Origin: a virus | Virus record (IMG/VR): IMGVR_UViG_3300005298_000004 | Length of the DNA stretch: 23,262 nt | Reading direction: 5' to 3' (one strand) | In this document: in pieces, positions 1 to 19,339 of the stretch | Layout: each line of letters opens with the position of its first letter | How positions within the stretch are numbered: position 1 is the stretch's first letter | Translations under genes and position numbers: made by a program | The notes under the pieces: model-generated | Told to the model about the DNA's origin: nothing | Databases searched by the model: none | Seen by the model: the letters and a program-made list of their open reading frames with translations, nothing else

Positions 1-770
1 AGTAGTAATTTAATTTCTTCATCCGTGAAACCCTTGTTCTTCAACACATCATACCTCTTTTTCTCCAATTTCAGGAAGTCAGGGATATCGAGGGTTGGGT
101 CGATTTCAATCAAATTAGCTGATAAGCTGGGTCTGAACGGGTCATCATCGCTACCGCTACCTGCAACATCGACTTCGACAATTGCTAACGCTGGTGGTGA
201 TGGAGATGCTGGAGCTAAAAGTCTTGCGGTTATTCCATCTCCATGTGCCACATCATTCTTGCACCAGAGAGATACACCAAATCTGCCAGATGCAAATGTT
301 GTATCTGTGACAGTGAATTTGGGAGTGGTCATGTCTTCACGAAAGCCCTTTAGTGTAGAACCAGAGACAGAACCCTTGTTCTCATAACTATCCTTTACAT
401 TGAGATCTACAGCTTCATATGCGAGAATAGCTCCACCTGCATCTGTGCTTACGGATAGTAAATAGTCTTGTGTTGTATGACCATACCATATCCTGAAGAA
501 GTAGAAATTGAGATAACTATTCCACCTTACATATTGACCTGGGTAATATCCAGCTACGTTTGCTCCCCAAACTGCTTTATCTGTAAAAACATCAACTGTT
601 AGCAGTCCAACTGACGTTCTGGCCGGATATGGTCTTGCCTTGTCTATTGCTGTTAAATAAGTAAGACTAACATCCTCAGTCGGATACTCAAGCTTTTTTC
701 TGATTATGCTTTTATCTGGATGGTCAATCGGTATTTTTCGTCTATGAGCTTCGATTACGAATTCAGTCAT
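1..770 (-). CDS. Truncated (>256 aa) putative virion/adhesin protein with probable ConA-like beta-sandwich; absent from the ORF track because its stop lies outside the window
   Basis: Manual translation from ATG at 770 (SD GAGGTGA upstream) is open to base 1: MTEFVIEAHRRKIPIDHPDKSIIRKKLEYPT...FTVTDTTFASGRFGVSLW...GFTDEEIKLL. TDTTFASGRFGV resembles the end of ConA/LamG-like domains. Confidence 0.8.
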   Translation of the reverse strand, partial: MTEFVIEAHRRKIPIDHPDKSIIRKKLEYPTEDVSLTYLTAIDKARPYPARTSVGLLTVDVFTDKAVWGANVAGYYPGQYVRWNSYLNFYFFRIWYGHTTQDYLLSVSTDAGGAILAYEAVDLNVKDSYENKGSVSGSTLKGFREDMTTPKFTVTDTTFASGRFGVSLWCKNDVAHGDGITARLLAPASPSPPALAIVEVDVAGSGSDDDPFRPSLSANLIEIDPTLDIPDFLKLEKKRYDVLKNKGFTDEEIKLL

Positions 771-1158: not shown

Positions 1159-1692
1159 TTAGCTGAGGCTTAATTCTACAGTAAAAATCCATGTAGTGCC
1201 TTGAACTTTTGTTCCGAGGCTTTCAACTTTTCTGTTTAAATTTATATATTCATCACCTGCACCATTTGCAACTGTCCATTCGTTCCAGGGAAAATTGGCT
1301 TCATCAGCACCAAAAGTGGCTCTAAAAACGACTTTTTGATTACTACCGTATATCGGATATCCATCATCCATTCCTTTATAATACTTATTAGTTCCCTGTA
1401 AACCGGTTTGTGAAGGGTCTGCTGGAGTCGTTCCATCACCAACGCCTATATGTGCGTTCGCATTATCGAATGGCGTAAATGTGCCTCCGCAAACTGCAGT
1501 CCATATTAAGTTAATTCCTTCATTAAGAAAGATGTTTCCATGAATTACCTTTTCTTCAATGAAATTTTCAGCATATGCTTTTTTCAAAAATTCAATCGGT
1601 TTACCTGCTTTAGCTAACTTTTCTATTGCTCCTGCTGAATCTATAAATTTAGTTATAATAAAGGTCGATTTAACTTTTCCTTTTTCATTCAT
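1159..1692 (-). CDS. Tail-collar/fibre-attachment-like structural protein (177 aa from ATG 1692; ORF track uses 1701)
   Basis: Motifs IGVGDGTT, FRATFGADEANFPWNEW, LNRKVESLGTK resemble phage minor tail/collar proteins. ATG 1692 lies about 26 nt from a BRE-TATA, fitting a leaderless start. Confidence 0.65.
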   Translation of the reverse strand: MNEKGKVKSTFIITKFIDSAGAIEKLAKAGKPIEFLKKAYAENFIEEKVIHGNIFLNEGINLIWTAVCGGTFTPFDNANAHIGVGDGTTPADPSQTGLQGTNKYYKGMDDGYPIYGSNQKVVFRATFGADEANFPWNEWTVANGAGDEYINLNRKVESLGTKVQGTTWIFTVELSLS

Positions 1693-1712
1693 ATTATACA
1701 TTATACGATTGA

Positions 1713-1730
1713 TATTTATAACTTTTTCTC
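1713..1730 (-). promoter_or_regulatory. Archaeal BRE-TATA promoter (GAGAAAAAG-TTATAAATA)
   Basis: Purine run plus TATA box about 26 nt upstream of ATG 1692; overlaps the stop codon of the 707-aa gene. Confidence 0.6.
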
Positions 1731-3852
1731 AAAATCTGATAATCCAATTCATGTTAGCACCCTGACCATATTTAAGTTTCCACTTTGTATTTATTGTATT
1801 TACATCGAAATGGTCGAAGAACTCAAATACTTCTTCTGGTGCTTCTTCGCTTTCAGCTTTTGGATTTCCGTAATACATGAAAATATCCGTTTCACCAACT
1901 GGTAGATAATCAACTTTAACCCAAATCCAGCTTTCACCTTGAGGATTCCATAACTCAATCCAATACGGCAATTTTGTAATTCCATTATCTTTTGTGAATC
2001 TAATATCGCTTCCATCAGGCTTTACTTTAGAATAATCGAAATTCTGAGGTGTTAATTTGATTAAAATTTGATAATCATAAACTTCTTGTGCTGTATTCGT
2101 TATAGTAATTTTTCTGCGATATTTGAAGCCATATAACCAAAGGATGTATTCAAACTCATAACCTGTCTGAATTGTTGAAGTTTTATCTAAAGATGAAGTA
2201 GTTTTATAAAATGGTGTAGATATTATTAACGGTTTATCATAACTTTCTAAAGTCTTTTCTAAAACTGCTTCAGAGCTGTAAACTTCGAAATCGAGCGATT
2301 GTAAATATCGCTCTAAAATGAGCTGAGTTAAAGCATCTAAATCATAGCTTTCGAAAGTTCTATCGTAAATTAACTGATAAACTAAATCGAGATTATAGCT
2401 TTCTAAAGTTCTTTCTAAAAGCAAATAACTTACGAGTTGTAAATCGTAACTTTCTAACGTTAAAGCTGATTCGAGCATCGATTGAATAAATAAATCGTAT
2501 GAATCGATGATTAATTCTGATACAATTTCTGGAAATACGATTAATTCGAAATATTGCGGAAAATCGTATTCTATTATAGGAATACCATAACCAGTTAAAG
2601 TTACTGGAAAATCGAATGGAAACATAATTTGTATTGATATATCTGATGTATAAAGAAATTCATCATGTTCTGTTTTTGTTTTAATTTCGTATGAAACTAT
2701 TGGCTCAATCCATAAATCATTAAAAGAATAAAGCTGTATTAATCTACTGATTTCTTCAATTGTATAATCAAAATTCAAATATGCATTTAAATCGTATGAA
2801 ATAAATTCTGGAAAATCATGCAATAAAGTAATATCTGCAAAAGCCTCTATTAATTCAGGAAAATCATGTAATAAAATAATATCCGCAAAAGCTTCTATTA
2901 ATTCGGGAAAATCATGTAACGTTGATATATCTACAAAATCTGTTATTATTTCTGGAAAATTAAATTCTGTTTTTACATAAGTCGAATAATCAATTGTATA
3001 AAGTGTTACGTCAATCATCGATATGATGTTTATTATAGATTCAATTACGTCGATATTTACTGAAACTATCGTATTTATTTCATTAAGAATGTTTAAACTA
3101 TCGATAACAATATTACATAAAGTTGTTATGATGCTTAATACATCTAAAGATGCTATAATCGGCTCTAATAAAGCAATTAAATTCGCAAAATAACTTAATG
3201 ATTCAATTGTAGTTGATGCTTTAACAATTGGTTTAATCGTATATTCAAGTAATGCAGTCGTTAAATCGTATTCTGAATATAATTCTACAGCTATTTCTTC
3301 GATTATTACTATATATCTAAATATAAATCTCAAAAGTTGTTTTAAAGCATCTATTTTTGTGTTATAATGAAATGATAAAACTGGCTCACCATAATTCACA
3401 TAATTCAACATTTTTATATACGTATCAAGAGTTATTAATTCAATTTCTGGAACAGAATTTGCTATACAATTTCTTGCTGATTTAATTGCATCTACTACAA
3501 GATTATGGTCTTCTGGCAGAATTATATCGCCTTTATGAACATATCTGATTCTACTTACAATTTCTGAAAAATCAGAACATGGATAATATGTTTGAAAAAC
3601 GATATCAACTAATTTTAAAGTATCAACTATTACATTTTGATCTCTAATTTTTACGAAATCACCAAAACCGACATAATTATATAATTTAGTTAGTGCTATT
3701 AAATTATCTATTACGGCTTCAAATCCTTCTAAATGCTTACCAATCTTTAAGTCTATACCTAAAGCTAAATCGTTAGAATAAATTTGTCTAAAAACAGTTA
3801 ATTCATAAGAATACGCTTCATCATAACTTAATATTTCTGATTCTAAAGACAT
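1729..3852 (-). CDS. 707-aa fibre-like virion protein: N-terminal GD-x-I..N motifs, repeat shaft, C-terminal DUF2341 domain
   Basis: C-terminus FKYRRKITIT...DGSDIRFT...LPYWIE.W...WIWVKV...MYYGNP...FEFFDHF matches the DUF2341 pattern; 16-aa and 17-aa repeats in the middle. Confidence 0.85.
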   Translation of the reverse strand: MSLESEILSYDEAYSYELTVFRQIYSNDLALGIDLKIGKHLEGFEAVIDNLIALTKLYNYVGFGDFVKIRDQNVIVDTLKLVDIVFQTYYPCSDFSEIVSRIRYVHKGDIILPEDHNLVVDAIKSARNCIANSVPEIELITLDTYIKMLNYVNYGEPVLSFHYNTKIDALKQLLRFIFRYIVIIEEIAVELYSEYDLTTALLEYTIKPIVKASTTIESLSYFANLIALLEPIIASLDVLSIITTLCNIVIDSLNILNEINTIVSVNIDVIESIINIISMIDVTLYTIDYSTYVKTEFNFPEIITDFVDISTLHDFPELIEAFADIILLHDFPELIEAFADITLLHDFPEFISYDLNAYLNFDYTIEEISRLIQLYSFNDLWIEPIVSYEIKTKTEHDEFLYTSDISIQIMFPFDFPVTLTGYGIPIIEYDFPQYFELIVFPEIVSELIIDSYDLFIQSMLESALTLESYDLQLVSYLLLERTLESYNLDLVYQLIYDRTFESYDLDALTQLILERYLQSLDFEVYSSEAVLEKTLESYDKPLIISTPFYKTTSSLDKTSTIQTGYEFEYILWLYGFKYRRKITITNTAQEVYDYQILIKLTPQNFDYSKVKPDGSDIRFTKDNGITKLPYWIELWNPQGESWIWVKVDYLPVGETDIFMYYGNPKAESEEAPEEVFEFFDHFDVNTINTKWKLKYGQGANMNWIIRF
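2181..2510 (-). repeat. Coding tandem repeat, about 17-aa period (TLESYD-type), 5-6 copies
   Basis: TLESYDLQLVSYLLLER / TLESYNLDLVYQLIYDR / TFESYDLDALTQLILER / YLQSLDFEVYSSEAVLEK / TLESYDKPLIISTPFYK. Confidence 0.85.
2804..2961 (-). repeat. 48-bp (16-aa) coding tandem repeat, 3 copies plus a partial copy
   Basis: Units at 2804-2851, 2852-2899, 2900-2947 encode LHDFPELIEAFADIxL-type repeats. Units 1 and 2 differ at 5 nt, 4 of them synonymous. Confidence 0.9.
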
Positions 3853-3870
3853 TTAAAAAAATAAAAAATA

Positions 3871-4572
3871 TCACGCTGTTACCTTAAAGATATATCTAAC
3901 TGTTAGCGTTGCGTCTACTGGAACATTTTGTGGAGTTGAAAGAACATCTCTGGCTATTAAAACGTATTTACCTTGAGCTTTTGCTATTATGCCTATTTCT
4001 CTTATAGTTATTGTATCCGAACTTTCATTAGTGAATGTTCTGATTATTCTAAAAACAGAATCTGGTGGATTTCCATCAACATCTTCAACAGTTGTTTTTC
4101 CGTAAACCATTTGACCATCTTCAAAACCATCTGAAATTTGCTGTTCTAATTTAAAATCGTCTCTTGATACTGAAGCTGAACCAATACCGACTACAACGCC
4201 ATAAGTATCTGTTCTTTCAATAGCGGCTACTTCTAATGCTGATGGTGCATATCTGGCTTCGCCAGCATACATAAGAGATGGATATTGAAAAGTTGAACCA
4301 TCAGTAGCGGTTAAAGTTACTTTTACACTCCATTCAGATTGCGATATAACTCCTGCGATATTTCCAGCCATAAGTGCTCTTAACATCAATGCAAAATTCT
4401 TCAATAAAGAACGACTTCTATCAAATTGCGTAGATATCAGATTTCCTTCTCTGTCTCTTACTTCAATTTCGTAAAAAAGGTCGAGATTCGCTCCAGAACT
4501 CATGTTCTTATCATTCGTTTCACCTTTAATATCTATTTCTCCTTTTTGAATAACTAATTTATTTACAGTCAT
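3871..4572 (-). CDS. 233-aa tail-collar/fibre-attachment-like structural protein
   Basis: GVVVGIG...D.KL...I, RTFTNESSDTITIREIGI, LIARDVL...V...LTVRY pattern; same general family as the 1159-1692 protein. Confidence 0.65.
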   Translation of the reverse strand: MTVNKLVIQKGEIDIKGETNDKNMSSGANLDLFYEIEVRDREGNLISTQFDRSRSLLKNFALMLRALMAGNIAGVISQSEWSVKVTLTATDGSTFQYPSLMYAGEARYAPSALEVAAIERTDTYGVVVGIGSASVSRDDFKLEQQISDGFEDGQMVYGKTTVEDVDGNPPDSVFRIIRTFTNESSDTITIREIGIIAKAQGKYVLIARDVLSTPQNVPVDATLTVRYIFKVTA

Positions 4573-4594
4573 ACATTAATTTATGATACTTAAG

Positions 4595-4611
4595 TAAATA
4601 AAAAGTTTTCT
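4595..4611 (-). promoter_or_regulatory. BRE-TATA promoter (GAAAAC-TTTTTATTT)
   Basis: About 27 nt upstream of ATG 4572. Confidence 0.5.
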
Positions 4612-5960
4612 CACCATTCGATTTGTGATTGTTCTTCTTGTTTAATCGATATTACTGGACAAGGTTCAAGATGTTTTCTTACGAATAACCAATCATAATA
4701 AACTTCCTGCACAAAATAAGATAAATCTTCATTACATGCTCCAATTACAATCTTAAGATTTGTGTTATGGCCTTCGGAATAAGCTGAACTTGCAATTAAG
4801 GTTCTTTTTTCATCAAAAACTTCATAAATCGTTTCATCAGGTTTTTGTATTATTTTAAAAACATACCATTTATTTGATTCAAATTCTTTACTCATTGATT
4901 GATTTCGTAACGAAGTATCAGCATCTCTGAAGCCCCACGCAAATATACCTTTAAATGGATTATTCGATAAATCTCCAGCCCCCCAAGCGTGTAGATAGCT
5001 TCCATAAGCATCTGCAGGATGATAATCTAACTTATCAGCATGATATAGGTCAAGTCTTGCGTCATGGTCTTTTGCAGTCCTGGGTGATAACTTTGCTTCA
5101 ACAATAAATGGTGATGTAAAATCATTTATGCTGTATATATTTACGAAACCATATATATTAAATGCAAAGTATAATATTTTGATACAGCTATCCTCAAAGC
5201 GTATTATAATTCTATCTATGCCTAATCGTTCATCTATTACCTCAATATATCTTTCAATCAGCTTATCGAAAGCTGATGCGATGTCTGTTAGAATAAATCT
5301 TCTTTCAGGCAGATATTCGTATAAAGTTGCGATATCTGTTGCTTTTATTATAAGATTCGCAAAATCAAACGTTTGTGCATAATCTGATGATGGAAATTCT
5401 TTAATGTATAGTTCAAGTGCACTCGAAAAGTCTGAAGCTGAAAAAGTTCTATCACTAAGTTTTTCAACTAATACGGCTACATCAACAGATTCTAACGATT
5501 TAAAGTATACCTCAAATCCGATAGCGATATCATAAGCAATTATATTTAGAATTGAGTAAATTTCTGCAAACTCTGCAAAATCGAATGCTTCTTTAATGAA
5601 ATAAGCTAAATCAAAAGCAGTAGCTAAATCGTAAGATGAAAAAGCAATAGATGAAGCTACATCAGTTAAAACACCATATTCATAAGCTATGAATCCTCTT
5701 GCACCAAGAGTTTCTATTAACGTTGCGAAATCTGCTGTTAATACGTTTTGAAGAGATGATTCAGAAATTTGTGCAATATCAAATCCATATGGTGTTATAA
5801 ATGCTAAATCAATTAATTCTATAGCCCAATCTGATACTGGCGAAAGTTGAGTTGATATTGATTTATCAATTCCGTATGCCCAATCAGATGAAAATAACTC
5901 TACAGGTCTTACCGGTGTCGAAAAAGCTGGTAATATTGCTGGAAATACGTCGAAAACCAT
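4611..5960 (-). CDS. 449-aa fibre-like virion protein: degenerate D-x-A repeat shaft plus C-terminal ConA-like domain of the type that normally follows DUF2341
   Basis: Ends with YDWLFVRKHLEPCPVISIKQEE, the characteristic C-terminal signature of DUF2341-containing proteins; N-terminal 250 aa carry recurring D[IFWYLV]A motifs. Confidence 0.8.
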   Translation of the reverse strand: MVFDVFPAILPAFSTPVRPVELFSSDWAYGIDKSISTQLSPVSDWAIELIDLAFITPYGFDIAQISESSLQNVLTADFATLIETLGARGFIAYEYGVLTDVASSIAFSSYDLATAFDLAYFIKEAFDFAEFAEIYSILNIIAYDIAIGFEVYFKSLESVDVAVLVEKLSDRTFSASDFSSALELYIKEFPSSDYAQTFDFANLIIKATDIATLYEYLPERRFILTDIASAFDKLIERYIEVIDERLGIDRIIIRFEDSCIKILYFAFNIYGFVNIYSINDFTSPFIVEAKLSPRTAKDHDARLDLYHADKLDYHPADAYGSYLHAWGAGDLSNNPFKGIFAWGFRDADTSLRNQSMSKEFESNKWYVFKIIQKPDETIYEVFDEKRTLIASSAYSEGHNTNLKIVIGACNEDLSYFVQEVYYDWLFVRKHLEPCPVISIKQEEQSQIEW

Positions 5961-5969
5961 AACAATTTA

Positions 5970-6185
5970 TTAATAGCCGTGATTTTTCATTCTTCCGTTT
6001 AAGGTATCTAATTTCTTTTCAATTTTCTCAAGACGATGCTCTATAAAAATTAATCTATCATCATGATTCTGCAACTTTTTTAAAGTTAATGAATAAAATT
6101 TGATAACTGCGGCAACTATAATTATTCCTACACTTATAATTTCCAGCATAATTAAAACCCAGCTTAAATAATTGCAATCCATCAT
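5970..6185 (-). CDS. Small membrane protein (one TM helix plus coiled coil); holin-like or envelope protein
   Basis: Hydrophobic WVLIMLEIISVGIIIVAAVIKFY followed by heptad-like RLIFIEHRLEKIEKKL; SD GAGGTGA. Confidence 0.75.
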   Translation of the reverse strand: MMDCNYLSWVLIMLEIISVGIIIVAAVIKFYSLTLKKLQNHDDRLIFIEHRLEKIEKKLDTLNGRMKNHGY

Positions 6186-7952: not shown

Positions 7953-10900
7953 TTATTTATATAATTCTCTAATCTTTCTTAATTTTGCTCTATTAATAAT
8001 TAATTCTTTCTCAAAGTCATCAATTACAATCCAATCGACCCCGAATTTCTTTACTTCTCCGTTCAAGGTTCTAACTCTGTCGATTTCTCTTCTTAATGCA
8101 TCTTCATCTATTATGTCGTAAACGTATAGATATATCAGTTCTGTTACTATACTGTTTATTTCTTCTGAAAGATTTCTTGCTAAAAGATAAGCTGGATATA
8201 GATTTACTTCATCATCAGGATATCCAAACATTTTAGCTTTTTCTACGATTTTCTGAATATCTATTGAAACATATTCTCCCATGCTGACGAGTTTATCTGG
8301 AGACCAGACTGCTGTTCTAACGTATTTTTCAATCATGGCGTCGATTAAAGCTTTATCAACTATATACTTCTCAAGTTCTTTTCTTGCTTGTTCGAATGTA
8401 ATAGCACCTCTTCTAAGTCTATTAAGTATGGCGTCTATCGCCATTTTAACTGCAGATTGTGACCTTTCAAAATCAGCAAATTCGGTTAAAATTTCAATCT
8501 CTCTCTGAGATTTTCCTAAATTCTTCAGATTTTGCTGGAATAATTCTTTAGTTATATAACCATCCATATATGCATCAATCATACTTCTAATCATTTTCGC
8601 TCTCTCATCTTTTATCGGTCGTATTCTGAATATCTGCAGAATAATTGGAATTTCATCCTGCGGAACACCCATCCATTCAAGTTTCTTTTTAACGTAATCT
8701 TCTGGAATATCGATGTATTCAGCATAACTGAGTATCGTAGAAATTGAAAGCGTATGTATCTTCATGTTCTTTTCAATTAATGCATCTGCTAAATCTTCAG
8801 ATAATCCAAGTTTTATGAGCTCGTTCTTTGCAATTGCTGGATCTATTGCACCTCTTCTTACCTTATTAAGTATCCCATCGGCAAGTGTTTTCTTGTAAAA
8901 GCCGTCATACATCAATTTAGCTATTTCAATGAATACTTGCTTTTCTTCTTCTGTAAGGGATGCATTAGCTACAATTTGATTGATTATTGTATTAAATTCG
9001 GCTTCACTCATGAAGCCTTCTGAAAATCTGTAAAGAATTCTGTATAGCATATATCTATACCAGTATCTTATTCTTTCCACAGTTCTAACTTTTTTCAATG
9101 CATCAGCAACTGGTTGATATAATTTGTAATATTCATCATCTAAGCCTAATGCTGGCAATTCTAATGATTTTGATATCGTAATAAGCTCTTCTTTAAGAGA
9201 TTTTGTCATTCCATCGAACGGAACTATATTTTCAACTACGCCTCTAAGCAAATCTTTAAAGTAATCTTTCATAATATCCATAGCTCTATCGTATTTCGCT
9301 CTTAATGCAAGTAATTTTATTTCACCATCAATAAAGCGAACTGGAACCTCTTTTCCGAGAATGTTTATTGTGGTTAAATTCGATAAAGTATTCATAAAAT
9401 TATTTATAGTCATGAATCCTTCTTTATACATATTTATTATGCCAGTTCTTACTAAAGTTCTTTCTTCCTGCAATGCATTCATGCACTCTGCGATTGTTAT
9501 TGGTTCAACCCATTTTGGATGCATTCCTCTTGAGACCACTATTAAGAATAACGCTTTTTCATCGAAATACTGATTGCCAGTTATTTCAGAAATTTCTTTT
9601 GGAATCGGAACAGACCATTTATACATCCATCTTGCATCGATTCTCATCGGAATATCGGCCATTAAGTCGAGATAAATGAGATTATCAGCTGTCCAGCCTT
9701 CAAGCCATGAAAACGGTGCGTAATCGTGCCATTTTGCGTAATGTTTGAGAACTTTTGAAACTATATCATTAAGCCTTTTCGCTACTTCCTCACTCGTGAA
9801 ATTCGATAAACCATAAAATCCCATAAGCCTTACTGGCGATACAGCTCCTTTTGCTCCTAAATCTTCCTCAATCGTTGGCTCTTCAGTTATCCACGCCTGC
9901 TTTGCGACCACTCTGCATGAAAAAGTCCATAAATCGCTCATACTTGGATACTTATAGTGTAGCAAGTAGTAGAGTTTTGCAAAATCTTCATAATAGCCTT
10001 TCATTGACATTAACGTTTTGAAGCTCTTTATTGCAAGTTCTGGTTTATTTGGAACTGAGAACAAATCTCTAATCATCATTCTCGAAAGGTCGCTTGGAGT
10101 CGGTAATTCATACAGCAAGCTAATTGGTGCTTTTCTTACTCTGCCAAATCTATCATAAAATTCGACAGACCACCCTTTAACATCCGCAGTAGTTGTTAAC
10201 CATGAAATCACTTCATCATTATATCCATGTAAACATAAATATCTATACATGCTTTCAAGAAGCCTATTAAATTTATTAGTTGGCATATGTCTTCTCGTTA
10301 TTTCTCTCATTTCAGCTATAGTTGGTAGTTCGACTGGTAATACATTCCTCCACATTGCGTTTGCAAGTTTTGAAATTGGTTGTGTTACCCAAATTGTCAT
10401 ACCGTAAAGCAGTCCTCTTCTAAATTCATCAGCATACTTTCCCATCATCTTTGCAAGACGAATAAACGGCTCTCCAACGTTGAATTTTATTTTAACTGTC
10501 TTCTCACCTTTAGCCTCACCTTCACCTTCAGCTCCGACTCCTGCTGGACTGCTTTTAGCTTTACCAGCACCTTTAAGAGTTACTGTAAACGAAGTTTCAT
10601 ATTTACTGAAAAATCCTCCAAGTTTAGTTAATGCAATTTTCATTCCGTTTGCAATATATTCTGAACCTATGAATACTACTGCTGTTGAACCTATCAATAA
10701 TACAGTCTCAATTAGCTGTCCTTTTTCTTTTCCAGCTACAATTCTGTCAATAAGGTCTAAAAAGAGCTTTTCGATTGGAACTGCTATATTAGAATATATC
10801 TTTTCAAATATACCTATTATAAGTTTAGATGTAAATTTACCAATAGGCTCCCATAACGATTGTGAAAAATTAACCAATCCCTCAACTACTGTCCAAAATC

Positions 10901-12437
10901 CGCTTAAAACAGTTTTTACTAAATTTGATGCAACAGTTACGAATCCGTTATAAAGAAGAACTGCAGTATCGTTTAAAACTTTAGGTATCATTTTTACTAA
11001 ATTAGAAATCATACTCGTTATTCCTGAATATATCCATGATAAAACACCGCTAACTGCATTCCAGACATCCAATAAAAACGTATTTAACGCACCGATTGGG
11101 TCTTTAACGAATCCTAATATCTTATTCCATATTACGTCAGCTACATTAGATATGAATTTGTAAATCGAATCAAAAGTTTTCCATACTGAATCAATTGCAT
11201 TCTTTAGCCAATCTGGAACTCCATTCCATATCCACTGCCCAAATGCACTAAATGCGTCAGAAATCGGCTTTATTACGTTTTTATTAAACCATCCTAATGG
11301 GTCTTTAGCAATTTCCGTAAAGAAGTCGCCAATCGCTTTAAGATAATTCGGAATGCTGTTTAGGAAATCGATTACATTTTTACGTATTTGTTCAAAGAAC
11401 AGAGCTATTCCAACAAGTGGATTAACGAAACCCTGAAAAGCAACAGCTATTTCTTTCATTCGTTCTGGTATATCTTTTACTTTTTCGAAAATCGCATCAA
11501 AAATCGGCTTTATGAACTCATGAATTTTCTCTGGAATTTCAGGAATAAAAGTAGCAATACCTTTTATCGCATCACCTAATGGAGTAATCGTTTTAACTAT
11601 AAATCCAGGGATTGCTGATACGGCTTCAAAAAGATTGCTCATCGATGATTGAATTGCTGACATTAAGCTTTGTATTGAACTTACTACCGATTGAAATCCT
11701 GCAATCGTTGCATTATATATGTTGGTTATGGTGTTAGTAATACTTTGTAAAACATTTTGTATATTTTCTACAAGACCACTAATGCTCTTATAGAGTGATT
11801 GTAACGTGTCGGATACTGCATTTTGTATATTGCTGATTGCACTAACAATATTCTGTAAACCTGACTGAAATGCTATTGAAACACTTTGAATTGAACTAAC
11901 TATGCTTGATAAACTTGTTTGAACTGTATTAGCTATATTTTGAACGATGTTGCTGATATTTGTAAAAGCATTTTGCACAACGTTTTGAATTGTTGATATG
12001 ATGCTTGATGTTGCAGTTGATATTAAATTCGTAAGATTACTGATACTACTTTGTAATGCATTTAAAACTGAAGATATTGAACTTGATATTGAACTTAAAG
12101 CACTTTTTAAATAACTGTATATAGAATCAAATGAAGATTTTACAGAATTTATAATCGAATTAACTGCATCGGATATAGCTTTTAAAACAGAAGTGCTTAA
12201 ACTCGATAATGCTGATTTAATCGTATTAATTATATAAGAACCAACATCTTCTATAAAATCCATTATTATTGTCGCCAACTGACCGAGTGGGTCGGTTACA
12301 CCGCCGTGTTCTACAAGAAACTCGTCCTCAATAACTAAATCGAGAGTTAAATCTTCTACAGGAACTACTTTACCAAATACGTTTACCAAAAGTTCAATAT
12401 CCGGTTTAAATTCGGTTACGGTTTCAGCCGACATCAT
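7953..12437 (-). CDS. 1494-aa large virion protein: tape-measure-like amphipathic helical N-half and helical-repeat C-terminus; candidate terminal-structure protein
   Basis: Long S/N/I/V-rich amphipathic periodic region, W-spaced repeats, hydrophobic segment, Gly-rich hinge, duplicated C-terminal units; start overlaps the upstream stop (ATGA). Confidence 0.85.
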   Translation of the reverse strand: MMSAETVTEFKPDIELLVNVFGKVVPVEDLTLDLVIEDEFLVEHGGVTDPLGQLATIIMDFIEDVGSYIINTIKSALSSLSTSVLKAISDAVNSIINSVKSSFDSIYSYLKSALSSISSSISSVLNALQSSISNLTNLISTATSSIISTIQNVVQNAFTNISNIVQNIANTVQTSLSSIVSSIQSVSIAFQSGLQNIVSAISNIQNAVSDTLQSLYKSISGLVENIQNVLQSITNTITNIYNATIAGFQSVVSSIQSLMSAIQSSMSNLFEAVSAIPGFIVKTITPLGDAIKGIATFIPEIPEKIHEFIKPIFDAIFEKVKDIPERMKEIAVAFQGFVNPLVGIALFFEQIRKNVIDFLNSIPNYLKAIGDFFTEIAKDPLGWFNKNVIKPISDAFSAFGQWIWNGVPDWLKNAIDSVWKTFDSIYKFISNVADVIWNKILGFVKDPIGALNTFLLDVWNAVSGVLSWIYSGITSMISNLVKMIPKVLNDTAVLLYNGFVTVASNLVKTVLSGFWTVVEGLVNFSQSLWEPIGKFTSKLIIGIFEKIYSNIAVPIEKLFLDLIDRIVAGKEKGQLIETVLLIGSTAVVFIGSEYIANGMKIALTKLGGFFSKYETSFTVTLKGAGKAKSSPAGVGAEGEGEAKGEKTVKIKFNVGEPFIRLAKMMGKYADEFRRGLLYGMTIWVTQPISKLANAMWRNVLPVELPTIAEMREITRRHMPTNKFNRLLESMYRYLCLHGYNDEVISWLTTTADVKGWSVEFYDRFGRVRKAPISLLYELPTPSDLSRMMIRDLFSVPNKPELAIKSFKTLMSMKGYYEDFAKLYYLLHYKYPSMSDLWTFSCRVVAKQAWITEEPTIEEDLGAKGAVSPVRLMGFYGLSNFTSEEVAKRLNDIVSKVLKHYAKWHDYAPFSWLEGWTADNLIYLDLMADIPMRIDARWMYKWSVPIPKEISEITGNQYFDEKALFLIVVSRGMHPKWVEPITIAECMNALQEERTLVRTGIINMYKEGFMTINNFMNTLSNLTTINILGKEVPVRFIDGEIKLLALRAKYDRAMDIMKDYFKDLLRGVVENIVPFDGMTKSLKEELITISKSLELPALGLDDEYYKLYQPVADALKKVRTVERIRYWYRYMLYRILYRFSEGFMSEAEFNTIINQIVANASLTEEEKQVFIEIAKLMYDGFYKKTLADGILNKVRRGAIDPAIAKNELIKLGLSEDLADALIEKNMKIHTLSISTILSYAEYIDIPEDYVKKKLEWMGVPQDEIPIILQIFRIRPIKDERAKMIRSMIDAYMDGYITKELFQQNLKNLGKSQREIEILTEFADFERSQSAVKMAIDAILNRLRRGAITFEQARKELEKYIVDKALIDAMIEKYVRTAVWSPDKLVSMGEYVSIDIQKIVEKAKMFGYPDDEVNLYPAYLLARNLSEEINSIVTELIYLYVYDIIDEDALRREIDRVRTLNGEVKKFGVDWIVIDDFEKELIINRAKLRKIRELYK

Positions 12438-17825: not shown

Positions 17826-18947
17826 TTACTTGACATTCTCCACGGCTAAAGCCGGGAGATTCTCCCTTCTCAGCCCCAGAGCATTCGGAACTTCCTTCAT
17901 CTGCCCCGGGACATCACATGGAGTTTCGGGCTGTGTCAAATCAGCCCCTACCTTGGACATATAGCCCAAGGCTCGTTTTAAGATGTTTAGAGCTCCATTA
18001 TAATCTGCGTTCAGCTCAACTCCGCATTTACTGCAAACAAATTTTCCGTTGCGTCTCAAACCTTGAGAACCACAACGGGAGCATATTCTGGATGTATTAG
18101 CTTCATTAACCTTTATAACTGCTATTCCTTCCCATAAGGCTTTGTATTCAATAAATTTGGACAAGCGATAATATGGAAATGTGTTTAGCTTTCTGTTGAA
18201 CTTTCTTCCTTTATTTTGTTTTCTAATTCCTTTCAAATCACCAAGAACTATTACGGCATTTTCTTCTTTAGCTTTGTTAACTATCTCTTTTGAAATTTTA
18301 TGTAGTAAGTCGTCAACCATTCTTCTTTCTTTATTTCCAATCTTTTTTATCGCTTTAAACTTCTTCAGTTTACCCAATTTCCTTCTGAGATGGAAATAAT
18401 GTCCTCGAATTCTTCTGAGTTCTTTTCCGTAGAACCTCGGCTTGCCGTCGGCAGTAGAAACGACTGTAGCGATATTTCTAATCCCTAAATCAATAGCTAT
18501 AACGTTCTCATATTCCTTCTTAATTTCTACTTCTTTCTCCATCGTTATATGCACGAACCATCCGTTTTTCTTTCTTATAACCTTGGCTTCCTTAAACTTC
18601 CAACTCAAATCTATTTCACAATGCGGTCTTATTGGCAGTTTTATACCACCTCTGACTCCATGAACCGGTATTTTAATCCAATATTTTGATAACTTGTTGT
18701 TAGTTATCCGCACATCATAAACGTCATTACGAAGAATAAGAGGATACTCTTTTTGCTTGAGCTTTCCTCTTTGTTTTCTGATTTTCCTTAATAGTCTTTC
18801 AGCCTGTTGTTTGGTCGCAGAATAAAGTTCGACATCTTCTCCCCTTAAAGCCTTCTGAAAGTTATTGTATTCTTTCTCAAGGGCTTTCAGCTTTCTGCTA
18901 TTTGCTTCATCCATGATTTTGGCCTTGATGACTTTTCTAACCAGCAT
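17826..18947 (-). CDS. tnpB: TnpB RNA-guided nuclease
   Basis: RuvC-I IAIDLG, RuvC-II region IVLGDL...VNEANTS, Zn finger CSRCG/CSKCG, RuvC-III NADYNGALNI; TAATG coupling to tnpA. Confidence 0.95.
   Translation of the reverse strand: MLVRKVIKAKIMDEANSRKLKALEKEYNNFQKALRGEDVELYSATKQQAERLLRKIRKQRGKLKQKEYPLILRNDVYDVRITNNKLSKYWIKIPVHGVRGGIKLPIRPHCEIDLSWKFKEAKVIRKKNGWFVHITMEKEVEIKKEYENVIAIDLGIRNIATVVSTADGKPRFYGKELRRIRGHYFHLRRKLGKLKKFKAIKKIGNKERRMVDDLLHKISKEIVNKAKEENAVIVLGDLKGIRKQNKGRKFNRKLNTFPYYRLSKFIEYKALWEGIAVIKVNEANTSRICSRCGSQGLRRNGKFVCSKCGVELNADYNGALNILKRALGYMSKVGADLTQPETPCDVPGQMKEVPNALGLRRENLPALAVENVK
17830..17990 (-). ncRNA. Predicted omegaRNA/reRNA scaffold overlapping the tnpB 3' end; 5' boundary approximate
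   Basis: Established for TnpB elements: the scaffold derives from the right end and the guide from flanking DNA (here GTAATAGTTTTGGAAAAG...). GC-richer, hairpin-containing region. Confidence 0.5.
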
Positions 18948-19339
18948 TATCTCCCTCTCTGAGCCTCAATATACTTCTCGACTGTTTCTTTTGAAACATT
19001 GCCGATAGTTGCAACGAAGTATGAATGAGTCCACAGCGATGGGAGTTTTAGTAGTTCAGGGAACTCTTGCCTTAAAATGCGGGAAGTTCTGCCCTTTATC
19101 TTCCTTACAATCTTATGAACTGGAATTGTTGGATGAGCTGAAATGAACAAATGTATGTGATCTGAATTTACTGTAAGTTCGATAACCTTAATCCCTAATT
19201 CTTCTGCAACCTCATAAATAATTTGTTTCAATCTTTCCTTGATTTTTCCAATCAAAACTGGTTTTCTACGTTTAGAACACCAAACCAAATGATACTGAAT
19301 TAAATACACCTTATTTTTTGAATGTTGATAGTCGTTCAT
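18947..19339 (-). CDS. tnpA: IS200-type Y1 HUH transposase
   Basis: YHLVW..K.RK, DHIHL (HUH), LW..SYFV, YIEAQ catalytic Tyr. Confidence 0.95.
   Translation of the reverse strand: MNDYQHSKNKVYLIQYHLVWCSKRRKPVLIGKIKERLKQIIYEVAEELGIKVIELTVNSDHIHLFISAHPTIPVHKIVRKIKGRTSRILRQEFPELLKLPSLWTHSYFVATIGNVSKETVEKYIEAQRGR

Follow-up and report, generated by a model that had tools for sequence, protein, structure and literature searches.

In a hot-spring archaeal virus, a surface module made of a DUF2341 body and a ConA-like lectin domain is divided between two fibre proteins of 707 and 449 aa, and this gene-fissioned lectin module probably reassembles in trans, joining two fibre chains (a probability of about 0.6). 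The DNA analysed is a stretch of 23,262 nucleotides from IMG/VR record IMGVR_UViG_3300005298_000004, referred to below as the window, and Table 1 gives the features on which the argument is built.

Table 1. Features of the two fibre genes and of the gene between them (window coordinates; aa, residues of the encoded protein).
Feature	Coordinates	Strand	Basis
707-aa fibre protein gene	1729-3852	-	ORF
N-terminal domain and repeat shaft of 707-aa protein, aa 1-564	2161..3852	-	ORF, repeats; dN 3-5 times that of the module
48-nt tandem repeats in 707-aa shaft	2801-2960		
DUF2341 beta-sandwich body, aa 565-672	1837..2160	-	Pfam PF10102; 56% identity to pilin-fused intact P0019; dN 0.09-0.15
Putatively donated stub, aa 673-701 (FFDHF and KWKLKY, the first two ConA strands, with loop)	1750..1836	-	HMM positions up to 131; dN 0.16-0.19
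Last six residues NWIIRF, redundant overlap strand	1732..1749	-	Outside the confident co-fold interface; dN 0.33-1.28, near neutral; variable in relatives
Stop codon of 707-aa gene	1729..1731	-	Next gene starts 27 nt on; contigs of four runs cover the site
233-aa gene between the halves, kept in all relatives	3871..4572	-	62-75% identity in L001, L002, L005, L008, L011, L012
449-aa fibre protein, C-terminal part of split module	4611..5960	-	ORF; conserved family of 442-1027 aa proteins sharing this C-terminal domain
N-terminal region and repeat shaft of 449-aa protein, aa 1-246	5223..5960	-	Monomer AF2 pLDDT <50; length varies among relatives
ConA-like domain without its first two strands, aa 247-430, IIIRFE to DWLFVRK	4671..5222	-	HMM 145-340; Foldseek; pLDDT 66-96
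C-terminal tail, aa 431-449 (LEPCPVISIKQEE...), predicted partner of first DUF2341-body strand	4614..4670	-	Co-fold contacts

The complementarity of the two halves is far beyond chance. A profile HMM of 342 positions, built from four intact cellular homologues, is covered from 4 to 131 by the 707-aa protein and from 145 to 340 by the 449-aa protein; neither alone spans it, and coverage is reached only jointly. In a six-frame scan, these two proteins gave the only matches to the profile in the window. As the original prediction required of homologue alignments, intact DUF2341-ConA proteins aligned to both ORFs define a precise junction, with no gap and an overlap of at most one strand. Independent BLAST comparisons with the intact protein P0019 place the 707-aa C-terminus and residue 253 of the 449-aa chain alike at about P0019 residue 287, and the position of the cut is strand 278-285 in the AF2 model of P0019 (pLDDT 87.9). 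The best matches of both halves lie in the same intact subfamily (P0016, P0017, P0019 and P0020) and not in the viruses' own intact paralogue.

The 707-aa protein had been described as stopping just past DUF2341, and the Pfam match (PF10102, aa 613-692, E 4.7e-21, 75.5 bits against a gathering cut-off of 23.4, model positions 1-82 of 84) does end 15 residues before the C-terminus. The Pfam model itself reaches further than the beta-sandwich body and takes in lectin strands 1 and 2, FFDHF being located at aa 676-680. Some other proteins, P0006 for one, have the DUF2341 body but no ConA domain. The missing half was correctly placed in the 449-aa protein, where a highly conserved domain runs from about G247 and ends in DWLFVRKHLEP. 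A further claim was that the halves are complementary with a four-residue overlap, IIRF, written in different codons in the two genes. The codons do differ and the complementarity stands, but the identity of the four letters is at chance level: the last 120 residues of the 707-aa protein share two 4-mers with the 449-aa protein, IIRF (aa 252-255 of the latter, 5196-5207) and QEVY, and at least one shared 4-mer is found in 43% of shuffles. IIRF is also not kept in relatives, which have IVVF, IVEF or LIEV in the 449 family and VIKL, VIIP, VIQQ or VVKL in the 707 family. It was thus rejected as a meaningful signature, the conserved feature of the overlap being a hydrophobic strand in both families. 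A duplication followed by reciprocal loss would be compatible with this one-strand overlap.

The fold of the lectin half is recognizable from predicted structure. A model of aa 250-449 matches L-type lectins (Emp47p, ERGIC-53 and VIP36) and GH16 enzymes with a Foldseek probability of 1.0 and a TM-score (target) of 0.5-0.6, and the model of intact P0019 gives similar matches. The sequence forms a separate subfamily, with 12 representatives among 1.84 billion proteins (HMMER, whole library); neither Laminin_G_3 (PF13385) nor any other Pfam family matches the 449-aa protein or the lectin part of the intact proteins P0016-P0021. Modelled alone with AF2, the 449-aa protein shows a domain beginning with strand 251-256, and no in-cis replacement for strands 1 and 2 is seen, the segment before it being a helix of low confidence. 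The domain's own model has good confidence, and the domain might be stable without the stub. The P-x-P...I-x-I...EE pattern of the tail is kept in split and intact forms alike. Paralogy of the two shafts was considered and set aside, as the match is weak (E 4e-4, 24% identity) and may reflect repeat composition. The product of the 233-aa gene between the halves matches no Pfam family in a Pfam scan.

The split is old and conserved. Seven virus contigs of independent metagenomic origin (the window, L001, L002, L005, L008, L011 and L012) have both the split and the gene order in common, which answers the suggested check of related viruses, and the two halves co-occur in 7/7 contigs where both sites are present. 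A distant pair is that of L008, with only about 39% identity in the lectin part and a 449-type protein that reaches 1027 aa through added repeats. Synonymous sites (dS) are saturated among the contigs, with a dN of 0.16-0.19 for the stub and 0.40-0.69 for the shaft. The 29-residue stub is conserved like the DUF2341 body and demonstrably under purifying selection, whereas the last six residues drift freely. Since the source is a single metagenomic contig, a misassembly or a recently broken gene had to be considered. Against this reading stand the same arrangement in seven contigs from different samples, the saturated dS and low dN, and contigs of four hot-spring metagenomes, one run from each of four studies, that tile the region with no rearrangement, indel or joint. 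Around the stop codon the contigs of the four runs differ only by a synonymous change at 1735. The DNA of the region is thus shown to be correctly assembled, and misassembly or recent breakage is effectively refuted.

The same data bear on the possibility that the halves become a single chain again, whether through frameshifting, site-specific recombination, or trans-splicing of RNA or protein. The idea draws on the common same-strand gene block of the halves and on the earlier remark that deleting one T turns the end of the 707-aa frame into IIRFE. The deletion does yield IIRFE, but the frame then reads IIRFEKKL and stops, with no hidden continuation; seen as a -1 frame, it stops after four codons. 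Besides, the two junctions share no DNA repeat, the contigs of the four runs contain no joints or indels, neither end carries intein-like sequence, and the C-terminal half is encoded upstream of the N-terminal half. A frameshift or recombination junction was therefore rejected, and rejoining by any of these routes is very improbable.

Structure prediction addresses whether the halves meet as separate chains. Their co-fold scored 0.90, against 0.44 for the best of three controls, in a setting that favours a pass, as the alignments of both chains included intact homologues and split-gene halves tend to pass through likeness to the intact fold. Of 80 solved complexes, 58 attain the mark applied to this score, as do 2 of 110 mismatched pairs, counts that are only roughly valid here because custom alignments were used. 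Contacts agreed between runs to at least 81%, with a partner pLDDT of at least 84. The model arranges the halves as a single module: FFDHF pairs with DWLFV (aa 423-427) of the DWLFVRK strand, the one singled out in the original proposal as possibly completing the DUF2341 sheet, and residues 436-440 of the 449-aa tail contact residues 581-585 of the 707-aa protein, in the first DUF2341 strand. The predicted interface includes all of residues 675-687 and 689-701 of the 707-aa protein. The halves are thus predicted to bind each other as a heterodimer, and the proposal of a tip assembled in trans gains support at the level of prediction. All the refuting conditions named with that proposal were put to the test, and none told against it.

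An alternative, which we consider unlikely although well ahead of the other two, is that the pieces of one ancestral module are now independent, the 449-aa protein being a self-sufficient, N-terminally trimmed lectin and the 707-aa protein a stand-alone DUF2341 body whose tail caps the body or binds something else. The confident sandwich that the 449-aa protein gives alone (aa 250-449) and the ConA-free body of P0006 would suit it, as would the stub of L008, which has lost FFDxF and the W. Yet selection on the stub is as strong as on the body, the stub keeps its length of 34 residues after EVF even in L008, and the halves co-occur wherever both sites lie on a contig. Moreover, changes in L008 have counterparts on the strand they pair with, D680/W424 becoming L/F, W691/S277 becoming C/T and F678/V427 becoming E/L across predicted contacts, in this one lineage only. 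The co-fold, far above its best control, likewise argues against independence.

Under reassembly in trans, the ancestor would have been a two-domain surface module with a DUF2341 body, a ConA-like lectin domain and a C-terminal strand folding back onto the body. Gene fission would have fallen inside the lectin domain, leaving the body and lectin strands 1-3 in the 707-aa protein, and everything from strand 3 onwards, fold-back tail included, in the 449-aa protein, whose gene lies upstream. After translation, the two C-termini would co-fold: the 707-aa stub would enter the sandwich left open in the 449-aa protein, placing FFDHF next to DWLFVRK and bringing W691 up against strand 272-278, and the 449-aa tail would clasp the DUF2341 body at its first strand. 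The product would be a composite lectin-like tip that locks two different fibre chains together, we infer at the distal end of the terminal fibres of the virion, where it would probably bind a host surface glycan or pilus. A stronger version, on which we are evenly divided, is that the receptor-binding tip exists only as an obligate heterodimer, the pieces of a lectin cut within its sandwich being carried on two fibre proteins in permuted gene order. Folding and chain joining would then be one event, and the virion would contain a naturally evolved split-protein device.

The virus may be a filamentous archaeal virus of the Tokiviricetes type, a group marked by a SIRV2-type major capsid protein. 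A 121-aa ORF matches Sulf_coat_C with 21.5 bits, short of the 25.2-bit cut-off; this capsid-like ORF has no match in GenBank phage records. CRISPR spacers from archaeal arrays match the window, which encodes Hjc, a Cas4-like nuclease and a GT4. Portal, terminase and HK97 capsid families had no match among the window ORFs scanned. None of 124 genomes from a single archaeal class, and none of four MAGs with P0019-like genes, contains the CRISPR repeat, and a housekeeping protein adjoining a CRISPR array shows at most 40% identity to eight MAGs. Peptide patterns revealed no close relatives of either fibre protein in IMG/VR. Among GenBank phage records, the 449-aa protein had no match and DUF2341 a single weak one, in a Methanomicrobiales virus. 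Queried with the first 330 residues of the 707-aa protein, a word-based search of limited reach gave only five proteins, each truncated in the same way, and among the proteins that the lectin part matched in whole-library HMMER none joins a 707-like shaft to the full module; on these two results, an unsplit ancestor-like form was not found. A literature search returned no relevant description of a split lectin tip in viral fibres.

In nature, gene fission mostly separates whole domains. A cut conserved within a sandwich, held until synonymous sites saturate, would be an uncommon natural example of fold complementation in trans. If confirmed, the arrangement would reveal a route to a heteromeric fibre tip in an archaeal virus, possibly copying the tip-adhesin module of host-type pili, account for the structural interdependence of DUF2341 and the lectin domain, and provide a thermostable natural split-domain pair. 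Given that the Pfam borders of DUF2341 include lectin strands, proteins that seemingly end after DUF2341 may be half-modules in need of a partner.

Several known systems resemble parts of this arrangement. A role as tip adhesins has been proposed for DUF2341 proteins encoded in type IV pilus loci of archaea (PMC4858521). The same two-domain module occurs intact on the archaeal pilin-type proteins P0016, P0017, P0019 and P0020, and P0019 matches a type IV pilin of Pyrobaculum (8fk7) at its N-terminus. The N-terminal half is 56% identical to P0019 and the C-terminal half 27-33% identical to the intact proteins, with FFDDF, W, DAxLDLY, HP and DWVRVRKY..PEP as motifs common to split and intact modules. 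The intact module forms a single pilin-borne chain, whereas that of the virus is cut in the lectin domain and its parts are placed on two viral fibre shafts, the C-terminal part being encoded first.

In chaperone-usher pili (Fim/Pap), donor-strand complementation completes an incomplete beta-sandwich with a strand of another chain, and completion of the fold is the assembly bond. The likeness is one of mechanism only, a sandwich completed by strands of another chain. Chaperone-usher pili use an Ig-like fold, one donated strand, homologous polymer subunits, a chaperone and an usher; the predicted viral assembly has a ConA-like fold, two or three donated strands, a reciprocal tail clasp and 1:1 pairing, and among the scanned ORFs of the window Pfam identified neither chaperone nor usher families. 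The ConA-like sandwich tolerates chain breaks, permuted order and two polypeptides, as legume lectins with two chains (pea, lentil, favin) and the circularly permuted concanavalin A illustrate. In those lectins one gene product is cleaved or ligated post-translationally, whereas here two separate genes are involved. Finally, fission or fusion of TcA-like subunit genes is exemplified by YenA1/YenA2, in which one unit is made from two adjacent genes and assembles like its single-chain relatives (PMC6486591). These genes are colinear and encode another class of protein that is not a viral fibre, whereas the halves of the viral module are encoded in permuted order.

Three minus-strand ORFs, encoding proteins of 449, 233 and 707 aa in that order, are separated by spacers of 38 and 18 nt (see table). 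The Pfam DUF2341 domain covers aa 613-692 of the 707-aa fibre protein (E 4.7e-21), whose chain ends 15 residues further on with NWIIRF. In the 449-aa fibre protein, IIRF occupies aa 252-255 and the domain beyond it terminates in DWLFVRKHLEP. The two ORFs are thus as described in the original prediction, in which a DUF2341-ConA module is split over both genes and may be assembled in trans. The shaft of the 707-aa protein carries three tandem 48-nt units (75-100% identical) encoding 16-aa repeats of the DFPELIEAFADI.LLH type, and shaft length and repeat number differ between relatives. The 233-aa gene has a seemingly frameshifted homologue at L011:3981-4696, with two matching pieces (aa 1-185 and 185-233) and a called gene of 193 aa. 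Downstream of the 707-aa gene lies the gene of the 180-aa protein, which matches phrog_23653, of unknown function (E 3.4e-50), and is kept in all relatives (64-82% identity).

Features of the window discussed in the text
Feature	Position	Strand	Remark
449-aa ORF	4611-5960	minus	C-half of module
233-aa ORF	3871-4572	minus	
707-aa ORF	1729-3852	minus	N-half of module; stop 27 nt ahead of next gene (start 1701)
48-nt repeat units	2801-2960		shaft of 707-aa protein
180-aa ORF	1159-1701		
1494-aa ORF	7953-12437		
IS200/IS605 element	17826-19339		Y1 transposase and TnpB

What the two halves are emerges from their homologues. The C-terminal 220 residues of the 449-aa protein, used as a HMMER query against 1.84 billion representatives, returned only 12 proteins, of which three are 449-like and lack DUF2341, and five (P0016, P0017, P0019, P0020, and P0021) carry DUF2341 immediately N-terminal to the lectin domain in a single chain. 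Pfam does not recognise this C-terminal domain. For aa 250-449, Foldseek matched the AF2 model (pLDDT 66-96) to L-type lectins and GH16 enzymes with a probability of 1.0, so that the domain is, by its predicted fold, ConA-like, as originally labelled. From N- to C-terminus, the AF2 model of the intact P0019 (pLDDT 87.9) comprises an archaeal type IV pilin domain (matching 8fk7), a beta-sandwich body, a ConA-like domain, and a short final strand. Since the Pfam DUF2341 model extends past the body, across FFDDF and a conserved W, the first two lectin strands already lie inside it. Both halves have the same closest intact subfamily, the N-half sharing 56% identity with P0019; the intact DUF2341-ConA paralogue found further downstream in related viruses is the nearest match of neither. 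This paralogue (L001:13025-14119, L002:14266-15330, L008:7926-8966), a single chain of 346-364 aa closing the same gene block, belongs to a different lectin subfamily. At the corresponding place, window 3-770, lies an unrelated ORF, cut by the window end and without homologue in relatives, and a TnpB (Cas12f1-like) gene (L008:6665-7894) separates the N-half gene from the paralogue in L008.

The halves are complementary, with an overlap of one strand. An HMM of 342 positions, built from four intact modules only, matches the 707 family from position 3 or 4 to 127-131, leaving eleven residues of the window protein unaligned beyond the match. Its match to the 449 family begins at positions 132-148 and ends at 339-340, and when all six frames of the window were scanned, those two pieces only were recovered. 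Pairwise BLAST aligns residue 253 of the 449-aa protein to P0019 residue 287, and the 707-aa protein, by extrapolation, ends at about that residue; a MAFFT alignment is consistent with this junction, confirming its proposed precision. In the modelled P0019 structure, lectin strand 3 (278-285) is where the module is cut: the 707-aa protein retains strands 1-3, and the 449-aa protein begins with its own copy of strand 3. The four-letter identity at IIRF carries no weight. The proteins also have QEVY in common, at least one shared 4-mer arises in 43% of shuffles, and the site reads IVVF, IVEF, or LIEV in 449-family and VIKL, VIIP, VIQQ, or VVKL in 707-family relatives. Removal of one T, proposed to give IIRFE, yields a frame reading IIRFEKKL and then a stop.

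The split arrangement is old and not an artefact. The window, L001, L002, L005, L008, L011, and L012, which are seven independent contigs and come from different samples, each carry the C-half gene and the 233-aa gene, followed by an N-half gene stopping at the same place; they include the distant relative L008, with about 39% identity in the lectin part. Five runs, belonging to at least four hot-spring and sediment studies, contain the window sequence, and contigs from four of these runs cover 1500-6100 with neither indels nor joints, the sole change near the 707-aa stop being synonymous. The rearrangement by misassembly considered in the original prediction is therefore not seen, and no DNA repeat was found at the two junction sites. 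The suggested origin by duplication fits the one-strand overlap, but neither the library HMMER search with the lectin part nor a search with the N-terminal part of the 707-aa protein found an unsplit-to-split intermediate; the data are compatible with a 3' part having been duplicated onto a second fibre gene before the first was truncated.

A co-fold of the 707-aa protein (residues 565-707) with the 449-aa protein (residues 225-449) scored 0.90, against 0.44 for the best of 3 controls. Of 80 solved complexes, 58 reached the mark, as did 2 of 110 mismatched pairs, a calibration that is rough here, as custom alignments were used; split-gene halves also tend to pass by likeness, and both alignments included intact homologues. 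None of the structure matches was a solved DUF2341-ConA module in its entirety, and the pass therefore does not come from a remembered heterocomplex. Contact agreement between runs was at least 81%, and partner pLDDT at least 84. The lowest-error contacts join F679/D680 with W424-V427 (placing the first lectin strand alongside the last), W691/K692 with residues 275-278, and 581-585 (KITIT, the first body strand) with 436-440 of the 449-aa C-terminal tail; residues 702-707 lie outside the confident interface. This computed model has the layout that the intact module would lead one to expect, with the DWLFVRK strand predicted to pair with the FFDHF strand. When AF2 models the 449-aa protein by itself, a low-confidence helix precedes strand 251-256, and nothing that could replace strands 1-2 in cis is apparent. 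At three of the predicted contacts, the residues of the distant L008 pair differ on both sides; coming from one lineage, this is only a hint of paired change.

Synonymous sites are saturated between relatives (dS >1.4 or not computable), and dN was compared between the window and its closer relatives L001, L005, and L012. It is 0.09-0.15 in the DUF2341 body, 0.16-0.19 in the stub that follows it (aa 673-701), 0.40-0.69 in the shaft, and 0.33-1.28 in the last six residues. These values indicate purifying selection on the stub, with free drift limited to the redundant overlap strand, which is the pattern that trans-complementation predicts.

Both fibre proteins would be produced from one gene block, and their C-termini would co-fold into a single lectin-like module. 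This composite would link two different fibre chains distally and would, at the same time, be the probable host-binding tip; we infer its virion location, stoichiometry, and ligand. TAKDHDARLDLY and YHPADAYGSYLHA are invariant across lectin parts at 40% overall identity, H314 and P315 also in cellular intact forms, and this most conserved lectin surface may be the ligand site.

The window derives from an archaeal hot-spring virus that is probably filamentous. One of its ORFs is capsid-like, matching the rudivirus/lipothrixvirus coat family below threshold, and it also encodes GT4, Hjc, a Cas4-like nuclease, a C5 methylase, and an IS200/IS605 element; portal, terminase, and HK97 capsid families had no match among the ORFs scanned. 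The window is matched by no fewer than 20 different CRISPR spacers (L028-L038), many of them with 100% identity, at sites scattered over 1038-21069, including 2724-2750, 2790-2817, 4744-4781, and 4986-5024 within the two fibre genes. The arrays that hold these spacers have one 30-nt repeat, GTTGAAATCAGACCAAATTGGGATTGAAAG, and one array lies on a 25.8-kb contig adjoining archaeal housekeeping genes; a housekeeping protein encoded beside an array shares at most 40% identity with the eight MAGs tried as host lineage. Relatives carry large gene insertions (L012:5683-7260, L009:1528-3960, L006:2800-5895), one of about 350 aa divides the 180-aa homologue in L012, and one glycosyltransferase and one methyltransferase gene of relatives have LAGLIDADG_3 matches; the insertions are probably inteins. 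The 1494-aa protein has weak similarity to phage tape measure proteins (21-24% identity, aa 195-625), which may reflect low-complexity or coiled-coil composition.

A literature search found no paper on a lectin domain divided between two viral fibre genes. The arrangement resembles known systems in mechanism, fold, and descent. In mechanism, it is akin to donor-strand complementation in chaperone-usher pili. In fold, it recalls two-chain legume lectins and permuted ConA, both of which originate post-translationally from one gene. By descent, it groups with the pilin-fused DUF2341 modules, which have been proposed to act as pilus-tip adhesins (Makarova et al., PMC4858521).
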